A stretch of DNA of 64,000 bases from Anaerolineae bacterium (lineage in GTDB: Bacteria > Chloroflexota > Anaerolineae > J036 > Brachytrichaceae): assembly GCA_947476335.1 (NCBI GenBank), contig CANJQH010000002.1, positions 22,768 to 86,767 of the forward strand. Direction: 5' to 3'. This document shows, in pieces, positions 55,956-56,169 of the stretch. The position numbers and the translations under genes were made by a program. Positions within the stretch are counted from its first letter, which is position 1. The number at the start of each line of letters is the position of its first letter. The notes beneath the pieces are model-generated. The model was given only the letters and a program-made list of their open reading frames with translations, ran no database searches and was not told where the DNA came from.

Positions 55956-55987
55956 AAAAGTTACTCCTCTGGCCTGTGCCGAACAAC

Positions 55988-56013
55988 AAAAAAGCCCTCC
56001 GCATGGGAGGGCT
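55988..56013 (-). terminator. attenuator-type terminator in the leuA leader
   Basis: The minus strand reads AGCCCTCC-catgc-GGAGGGCT followed by TTTTTT. The U-tract ends 32 nt upstream of the leuA ATG. Confidence 0.6.
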
Positions 56014-56038
56014 GTGTGCTGTGCCGATCTGCGGCTGA

Positions 56039-56131
56039 TTACTGCGCCGCCGTCCCATGTGAAATTCGCCCTCTGCCTGTAAGCAAGAGCGCGTTCGTAA
56101 GGTGGCTGAGCACAATCAATTTGCGGATCAC
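56039..56131 (-). CDS. candidate leader peptide (30 codons, 6 Leu including three consecutive CTC-TTG-CTT)
   Basis: Hand translation gives (V/M)[32 protein letters not shown] start, no clear SD. Confidence 0.3.
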
Positions 56132-56140
56132 GTAAGTCAC

Positions 56141-56169
56141 TTTATACAGGAATGGTCGTGGGATGTCAA
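56141..56169 (-). promoter_or_regulatory. sigma-70-type promoter TTGACA-17-TATAAA of the leu operon
   Basis: Hexamers on the minus strand at 56169-56164 and 56146-56141. Confidence 0.6.

Follow-up and report, generated by a model that had tools for sequence, protein, structure and literature searches.

The stretch of DNA analysed here (the window; 64,000 nucleotides, positions 22,768 to 86,767 of contig CANJQH010000002.1, assembly GCA_947476335.1) comes from an Anaerolineae bacterium with a 3.4-Mb genome of 60% G+C (referred to below as G000), whose LeuA protein finds its best matches in metagenome-assembled genomes labelled Chloroflexota, Thermoflexales and Anaerolineae. It carries leuA, the gene for 2-isopropylmalate synthase, and ahead of it a short leader with a promoter, a leucine-rich open reading frame (ORF) and an intrinsic terminator. 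A first-pass annotation, made from the sequence alone, had proposed that this leader is a ribosome-mediated attenuator, and the present work follows up that proposal by comparison with related leaders, RNA folding and searches against known RNA families. All coordinates are positions in the window unless another contig is named, and the leader, leuA and the genes of its operon all lie on the minus strand. The features of the leader are the following:

56164–56169, minus strand: −35 box TTGACA, read in the sequence; overlaps the TGA stop codon of an upstream ORF for a 140-aa membrane protein
56141–56146, minus strand: −10 box TATAAA, read in the sequence, separated from the −35 box by a 17-nt spacer
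56039–56131, minus strand: leader ORF, read in the sequence, GTG plus 29 codons plus TAA (56041–56039)
56119–56117, 56110–56108 and 56101–56099, minus strand: single Leu codons of the leader ORF, read in the sequence
56081–56089, minus strand: Leu run CTC TTG CTT (codons 15–17), read in the sequence and conserved in relatives
56049–56106, minus strand: hairpin 1:2 (anti-antiterminator), predicted by folding (−19.6 kcal/mol) and by the RNAalifold consensus of three leuA leaders
56001–56061, minus strand: antiterminator 2:3, from folding (−23.5 kcal/mol) and covariation
55988–56013, minus strand: intrinsic terminator 3:4, AGCCCTCC-catgc-GGAGGGCT (RNA AGCCCUCC-caugc-GGAGGGCU) with a U run, from sequence, terminator scan and folding
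55964–55969, minus strand: Shine-Dalgarno sequence GAGGAG of leuA, 8 nt ahead of its ATG and in no predicted leader helix
54363–55955, minus strand: leuA, 2-isopropylmalate synthase, the first gene under the proposed control (Pfam HMGL-like and LeuA_dimer; NCBIfam)

The promoter, ORF and terminator all lie where the first-pass annotation had placed them. Every base of the TTGACA-17-TATAAA promoter (56169–56141) is present, and the 30-codon ORF at 56131–56039 contains six Leu codons, three of them consecutive (CTC TTG CTT, 56089–56081), in addition to three Ile and two Val codons. The terminator at 56013–55988, which is also detected by a terminator scan, is made up of a hairpin (56013–55993, −14.8 kcal/mol) and a T run ending at 55988, and stops 32 nt ahead of the ATG of leuA (55955). 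These 32 nt leave no room for a promoter, so transcripts of leuA must pass the terminator. The leuA product matches the NCBIfam model of 2-isopropylmalate synthase with 749 bits (cut-off, 532). The terminator stem, which had been listed as a weak point because of its length of 7–8 bp, is indeed short (8 bp); it is also G+C-rich, and its shortness is offset by the stability of the hairpin and by its being identical in 16 of the 19 aligned homologous leaders. The window contains the stem pattern GCCCTCC-N3-8-GGAGGGC just once, whereas 0/100 shuffles contain it, and a looser pattern (CC[CT]TCC-N3-9-GGA[GA]GG followed by a T run) has three sites in the entire genome, directly upstream of leuA, ilvB and cimA, respectively.

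The first-pass annotation had proposed a comparison of leuA leaders from related genomes, and a DNA search of the family provided three of them. The leader found in G004 (81% identity) is located directly ahead of leuA, and that of G002 (75% identity) precedes a methyltransferase gene, which is followed by leuA; both genomes belong to the same genus as G000. In a further sister genome, G001, the contig ends within the leader, and the terminator is identical. G000, G004 and G002 share the TTGACA-17-TATAAA/C promoter, the ORF, its Leu codons (including the run of three), the position of the stop codon and the terminator. Each of these three genomes has a different, unrelated gene ahead of the promoter, which indicates that the promoter and leader form a unit that belongs to leuA and travels independently of the upstream neighbour.

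The leuA leader ORFs of G000, G004 (MNGRISLRLLTNELLLTGSGRASHGTTTR) and G002 (MNGQLALSLLTKALLLNSMETDSFGTATRF) consist of 29–30 codons and stop 22–27 nt ahead of the terminator. In the alignment of the peptides, Leu is retained at codons 8, 11, 15, 16 and 17 in all three; the changes at these five shared positions are exclusively synonymous (CTC/CTT, TTG/CTG), flanking residues vary, and the Ile and Val codons of the window peptide are lost in G004 and G002. Over the span of the leader, the other two frames are open in just 1/19 and 3/19 sequences. The frame of the ORF is open further 5′ to an ATG at 56215, within the preceding gene and upstream of the promoter. CTG, which makes up 49% of the Leu codons in the genome, is used by 0/6 Leu codons of the window leader. 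Taken alone, the window peptide is only marginally enriched in Leu (6/29 codons, with Leu at 9.8% in the genome; P = 0.06); the three orthologous leaders together give 19/86 (P = 6e-4).

The terminator stem and tail, AGCCCTCC-loop-GGAGGGCT-TTTTTGTT, recur in many genera of the family, as a shared module upstream of ilvB, which encodes acetolactate synthase, and of a leuA paralogue whose copy in G000 scores as citramalate synthase (cimA). Each copy of the module is preceded by the same type of promoter and by a mini-ORF, and the encoded peptides match the pathway of the downstream gene: those of leuA are rich in Leu, those of ilvB (e.g. MSSLLVVVLVISALLVLSGLEQNPFRMATMRA) in Val, Leu and Ile, and those of cimA (e.g. 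MMRPTGIPTIVIISTR...) in Ile. The residue classes (Leu, Ile, Val, other) differ among the three gene classes (3 × 4 table, chi-square P = 1e-11), and Val is depleted in the leuA leaders compared with the ilvB leaders (1/86 vs 43/199, P = 1e-6), although these P values are rough because the sequences are related. Among the codon types that vary within the regulatory block of the ilvB leaders of one genus, six differ synonymously and one does not. The leuA and ilvB leader peptides can be aligned (LTNELLLTG vs LINELLVLTD), and together with the common module this makes the leuA leader look like a duplicate of the ilvB leader, that is, a paralogue re-tuned to leucine by codon replacement, whose Val and Ile codons were replaced or lost, apparently leaving a Leu-only sensor.

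Besides the terminator, the leader can form two alternative structures. In the antiterminator, the base helix pairs 56059–56049 (CAUGGGAcGGC) with 56012–56002 (GCCcUCCCAUG), that is, with the left arm of the terminator and four bases of its loop, and encloses the UAA stop codon of the leader ORF. The first-pass annotation had pointed to two segments, GAGGGC (56073–56068) and CATGGGA (56059–56053), and had considered alternative antiterminator pairing possible. Both segments are complementary to the terminator left arm and loop as described, but only CATGGGA is conserved and co-varies, and it is pairing through this segment that the comparative data support. GAGGGC is not kept in G002 (GGAGAC) or G004 (GCGGGC); we dropped it as an antiterminator segment and treat it as part of hairpin 1:2.

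Covariation of the antiterminator was evaluated over 15 leuA and ilvB leaders, with partner strands slid by 1–3 columns and 500 shuffles as controls. In the aligned helix, 93.3% of the cells are paired, compared with 33–61% when the partner is slid; three pairs co-vary, with eight cells changed on both sides, and the observed score was reached by 0/500 shuffles. The source of this signal is the terminator loop: its sequence differs between leaders (CAUGC, AAAC, UAAAC, UAGAC ...), and the upstream strand changes along with it, so that CAUG occurs with CAUGC, GUUU with AAAC and GUUUA with UAAAC. The cognate duplex of the window (−18.5 kcal/mol, vs a mean of −12.6 for non-cognate loops) is the best of 18 comparisons, and cognate duplexes are more stable than the non-cognate mean by 2–9 kcal/mol in 18 of the 19 leaders, the exception being the cimA leader of G000.

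The second alternative, hairpin 1:2, holds Leu codons 11 and 15–17 in its 5′ arm and the antiterminator strand in its 3′ arm. It is predicted in all three leuA leaders, for which RNAalifold returns 1:2 together with 3:4. The mutually exclusive structures have comparable predicted stabilities (1:2, −19.6; 2:3, −23.5; 3:4, −14.8 kcal/mol).

Where a ribosome would have to stand to throw this switch was addressed by masking codons in a transcript cut before the 3′ arm of the terminator. The full leader was set aside because equilibrium folding under the mask proved uninformative (terminator >0.9 at each codon in almost all leaders). With the A site at codons 3–20 of the cut transcript, pairing of region 3 in the antiterminator is ∼0.7 (0.5 at codon 2), and it drops to 0.1–0.2 with the A site anywhere from codon 21 to the stop. 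According to this profile, the Leu run at codons 15–17 is the last block at which a stalled ribosome would cover region 1 and leave region 2 free, and a ribosome that reaches the UAA, which lies inside the antiterminator helix, would melt that helix.

The start of the leader has features of its own. From the spacing of the promoter, we infer a transcription start near 56134–56132. The GTG at 56131 lies 9 nt past the −10 box and has no Shine-Dalgarno sequence, just as the first-pass annotation had cautioned. TTGACA precedes all leaders of the set except that of cimA in G000, which has no match to the −35 search pattern, and the −10 box is conserved in the homologous leaders as TATAAA or TATAAC. 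The start codon is found 9–12 nt past the −10 box in the complete leuA leaders (G000, G004 and G002) and 7–13 nt past it among leaders of the window's family, whereas in other families of the class this distance is 19–41 nt, often with a Shine-Dalgarno-like stretch. In G000 itself, the leaders start 9 nt (leuA, GTG), 8 nt (ilvB, TTG), 7 nt (cimA, GTG) and 8 nt (aroH, GTG) past the −10 box. With a start codon only 9 nt from the −10 box, the leader mRNA would be leaderless or nearly so, and the spacing in the family points to this mode of initiation for its leaders in general. The sister genomes have an ATG in the codon adjoining the position of the window's GTG: when the two are aligned without gaps, the window reads ATC where G004 has its ATG and GTG in place of the preceding GTC, so that the start codon appears to have been shifted by one codon rather than lost. 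Translation of a leader peptide without a ribosome-binding site is known for ilvBNC of Corynebacterium glutamicum (PMC11857589, citing Morbach 2000; PMC10272879), and leaderless initiation has been reported for its ilvB leader (PMC11857589, citing Morbach 2000).

Taken together, the anatomy of the leader, its conserved Leu codons, the co-varying antiterminator and the lack of a matching rival RNA model support the ribosome-mediated attenuator suggested by the first-pass annotation. We consider it very probable that the leader is a classical leader-peptide transcription attenuator, with charged tRNA-Leu as its signal and with leuA, the exporter and methyltransferase genes that follow it and leuCD as the genes under its control. 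Transcription would start ∼7 nt past TATAAA, and the GUG, 0–3 nt from the 5′ end, would be read without a Shine-Dalgarno sequence. When leucine is scarce, the ribosome would stall at the Leu codons, chiefly at CUC UUG CUU (15–17), and cover region 1; region 2 (CAUGGGAcGGC) would then be free to pair with region 3 (the terminator left arm and loop), the terminator would be blocked and RNA polymerase would run into leuA. When leucine is plentiful, the ribosome would proceed to codons 21–30 and the UAA, within the antiterminator helix, and occupy region 2, so that the 3:4 terminator could form and transcription would stop 32 nt ahead of leuA. If the leader is not translated at all, hairpin 1:2 could sequester region 2, which would again favour termination.

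Several observations weigh against this attenuator or some of its parts. There are just three orthologous leuA leaders, and the Leu enrichment of a single peptide is marginal (P = 0.06). The GTG lacks a Shine-Dalgarno sequence and its distance from the 5′ end depends on a predicted start site; poor translation would spoil the switch. In equilibrium folding of the full leader, the terminator wins wherever the ribosome mask is placed, which means that the switch must be kinetic (co-transcriptional), as in the classical systems. The ribosome-free cut transcript still favours the antiterminator (0.67), and hairpin 1:2 is not favoured over 2:3 at equilibrium; termination without translation is therefore not predicted by thermodynamics alone, a departure from the trp paradigm. 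Hairpin 1:2, in the register of the window, shows no covariation over the ilvB leaders (59% of cells paired, no better than the slid controls); it was abandoned as a family-wide structure, and we treat it as predicted only. Finally, in Streptomyces coelicolor, mutation of similar-looking leuA and ilvB leaders did not have the effects expected of strict attenuators (PMC1262725).

The Streptomyces results also bear on the best-surviving alternative, in which the ORF is translated and the terminator works, but read-through reflects general translation capacity, coupling or Rho-type effects and not leucine specifically. Mutations of candidate regulatory codons in the S. coelicolor leuA and ilvB leaders had either no effect or an effect inconsistent with attenuation (PMC1262725), and the presence of three Ile and two Val codons in the window peptide would suit such a non-specific response. 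However, the Leu positions are retained in G004 and G002, whose leaders have lost the Ile and Val codons, Val is specifically depleted relative to the ilvB leaders, and the Leu run occupies precisely the last position at which a stalled ribosome would leave the antiterminator free. We therefore regard a leucine-independent response as improbable.

It is very unlikely, in our judgement, that the terminator is conditional but sensed by a trans-acting protein, uncharged tRNA or a small ligand, with the ORF being incidental. T-boxes regulate leuA in Geobacter and Pelobacter and occur in Chloroflexi, the reported chloroflexal cases preceding ileS and trp genes (PMC2494555), and like the leuA leader they place a terminator/antiterminator switch before an amino-acid gene and report tRNA charging. 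The poor start codon and the preference of the free cut RNA for the antiterminator also fit a sensor other than the ribosome. The first-pass annotation had named a recognised riboswitch or T-box as a possible better explanation, but an Rfam scan (E ≤ 1) of window positions 50000–64000 and seven homologous loci gave no match to the leader, whether to the T-box (RF00230), Leu_leader (RF00512) or riboswitch models. The leader lacks a Stem I, a specifier loop and a T-box sequence, and the ∼127 nt from the −10 box to the terminator are too short for a T-box; its sensing is proposed to proceed instead through the codons of a translated ORF. Codons at the Leu, Val and Ile positions vary synonymously, and the composition of the peptide switches with the pathway while the RNA module remains constant, which a ligand or tRNA sensor would not require. 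The suggestion that the hairpin is a plain terminator of the upstream 140-aa gene, ∼150 nt downstream of its stop codon, and that the Leu-rich ORF is a chance open frame extending back into that gene, can be dismissed as barely credible and is already contradicted by the comparative data, given that leuA would be left without room for its own promoter past the terminator, the promoter–ORF–terminator unit is conserved next to different upstream genes, the stem is found genome-wide solely before leuA, ilvB and cimA, and the antiterminator co-varies.

Leader-peptide attenuation is well documented in Proteobacteria and Actinobacteria, and our literature search found no paper that describes it in Chloroflexota or Anaerolineae; Rfam offers no model for it either. 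The leuA leader resembles the enterobacterial leu attenuator (leuL; RF00512; relatives trpL, hisL, ivbL and ilvL) in having a short ORF with a Leu run that avoids the major codon, predicted 1:2, 2:3 and 3:4 hairpins, a terminator just before leuA and a proposed logic in which a stall leads to read-through. The two differ in that there is no sequence or structure homology detectable as an Rfam match at E ≤ 1, the window ORF has a GUG start at or beside the 5′ end and no Shine-Dalgarno sequence, the antiterminator recruits the loop of the terminator and has the stop codon inside it, and thermodynamics alone does not predict termination of the free RNA. The closest actinobacterial systems are ilvBNC of C. 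glutamicum (IlvL, the ‘ilvB-II motif’) and other ilvB, leuA and trp leaders (PMC11857589, PMC10272879, PMC1262725, PMC4046766). The former, like the proposed switch, combines a leaderless mRNA lacking a ribosome-binding site with a three-hairpin scheme (anti-antiterminator, antiterminator and terminator) ahead of branched-chain amino-acid genes; all of these leaders belong to a different phylum, and no sequence similarity to them was detected. The actinobacterial LEU element of leuA is described as a pseudoknot in which the Leu codons pair with the Shine-Dalgarno sequence of leuA, and it lacks a terminator (PMC1262725), whereas the window has a terminator and, in the predicted folds, in which pseudoknots were not searched for, its Shine-Dalgarno sequence (55969–55964) does not pair with the Leu run. 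The true homologues are the leaders of ilvB, ilvD and cimA in Anaerolineae, which share the promoter type, the stem AGCCCUCC/GGAGGGCU, a loop-complementary antiterminator strand and alignable peptides.

In G000, three further leaders of this general design were recognized:

G000:C37, 9310–9430, plus strand: ilvB leader (L152), with a TTGACA-17-TATAAA promoter and a TTG start 8 nt past the −10 box
G000:C63, ∼4930–5075, plus strand: cimA leader (L153), with a TATAAT box and a GTG start 7 nt past it
G000:C5, 29590–29830, plus strand: leader of the chorismate mutase gene aroH, with a TTGACA-17-TAGTAT promoter and a GTG start 8 nt past the −10 box

The ilvB leader peptide, LSSVFVVPGVVLISMLLVVSGLGQSSYGKALRKH, is rich in Val, Leu and Ile, and the terminator, AGGCCCTCC-cacagt-GGAGGGCCT, lies 28 nt ahead of the acetolactate synthase gene. 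The cimA leader encodes a peptide with four Ile residues, VFGGIVVIRSISLGRGLITPPTPALLRNG, and has the terminator ACGCCTTCCC-cacc-GGGAAGGCGT; no convincing antiterminator was found for it in the duplex test. The aroH leader peptide, VGLNMCLYAGYRYYGYFSKAKESLLVRVFSTAG, contains five Tyr and two Phe residues and is followed by a 12-bp terminator that represents a different module from that of leuA, ilvB and cimA; this leader is probably an attenuator responding to aromatic amino acids. Genome-wide scoring of amino-acid enrichment in mini-ORFs before terminators yielded only noise, and a stricter scan that required a promoter recovered the leuA, ilvB and aroH leaders and one metY leader without a convincing ORF. 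As a separate observation, the ilvB leaders of one genus (L120–L127) share a conserved hairpin, AUGCG-agccuag-CGCAU, with the UAG stop codon of the leader in its loop, and their GGAU...AUCC flanks could sequester part of the antiterminator strand.

Across the class, a covariance model built from leuA and ilvB leaders has matches in 118 of 301 genomes, representing 78 of 176 genera, and the sampled loci precede ilvB or ilvD and encode peptides rich in Ile, Leu and Val. In two genomes of other families (L106 and L109), leuA directly follows a Leu-rich leader that has a terminator as well as a complementary strand upstream. Scanning of metagenome contigs for the conserved Leu block (CTTACGAANGNGCTCNTGCTTA) added no new leuA leaders: all 20 loci were chance matches in unrelated coding sequence, mostly in one human-gut gene. 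We put at about even the chances that these leaders constitute an unpublished attenuator family spanning the Anaerolineae, in which one module was duplicated and re-targeted by codon replacement (Ile/Leu/Val for ilvB and ilvD; Leu only for leuA, in at least three families; Ile only for cimA), with 5′ untranslated regions of 0–6 nt in the window's family and leaderless initiation at non-AUG codons (GUG or UUG in the four G000 leaders) as part of the sensor.

Downstream of leuA, profile matches identify the remaining genes of the putative operon (50736..54320):

53700–54320, minus strand: LysE/LeuE-like exporter
52987–53865, minus strand: ORF for an S-adenosylmethionine (SAM) methyltransferase
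51575–53014, minus strand: leuC
50736–51332, minus strand: leuD

From their common strand and spacing, we infer that leuA, the exporter and methyltransferase genes, leuC and leuD form one operon. The exporter belongs to the LysE/RhtB family and shows a weak match to the leucine efflux protein LeuE, and the methyltransferase is a class I SAM enzyme that resembles trans-aconitate methyltransferase; both genes also neighbour leuA in G001, G002 and G004, the sister genomes that were checked. The 240-nt spacer between leuC and leuD (51333–51574, minus strand) contains tandem repeats (gaattagtttagt, three copies, and ctctttact, three copies) and a perfect 25-bp hairpin (51387–51441) with flanking inverted stretches; its sole Rfam match is a chance miRNA-like one. 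On the other side of the leader, the 140-aa ORF (56166–56588, minus strand), whose TGA stop falls within the −35 box, encodes a small membrane protein with no match in Pfam or NCBIfam.

Further variation is seen in the region just upstream of leuA. In G002 (C32, ∼6380–7380; L114/L083), a Tam-like methyltransferase gene (MQTWNTQLYDGKHGF...) lies between the Leu leader and leuA, and in several other genera this methyltransferase gene is immediately upstream of leuA, with no recognisable leader in the 1.5 kb searched. In G004 (L111) and G001 (L115), the spacer between the terminator and leuA is 45–60 nt long, compared with 32 nt in the window, and includes a conserved CGTATAGTCAGC stretch (TATAGT box) that is absent from the window and is possibly a weak second promoter for basal expression of leuA. 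Six loci from other genera (L083, L085, L095, L098, L104 and L108) have no leader and carry, just upstream of leuA, long palindromes of repeated words (GATAGT, CCCAATAC, GGTAAGGT ...) that look like lineage-specific repeat hairpins.

The mechanism proposed for the leuA leader is an ordinary and known one; what it adds is a module re-tuned to three specificities and its near-leaderless starts at non-AUG codons. Leader-peptide attenuation would add to the picture of how amino-acid synthesis is controlled in the Chloroflexota, which are abundant and poorly cultured. A single RNA switch module with three codon read-outs (Leu; Ile; Ile/Leu/Val) suggests that the specificity of such a sensor may be changed by a few codon substitutions, and the leaders offer testable cases of leaderless initiation at non-AUG codons outside the Actinobacteria. 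The mini-ORFs and leaders therefore merit annotation, lest the 5′ regions of leuA, ilvB and cimA be read as empty spacers.

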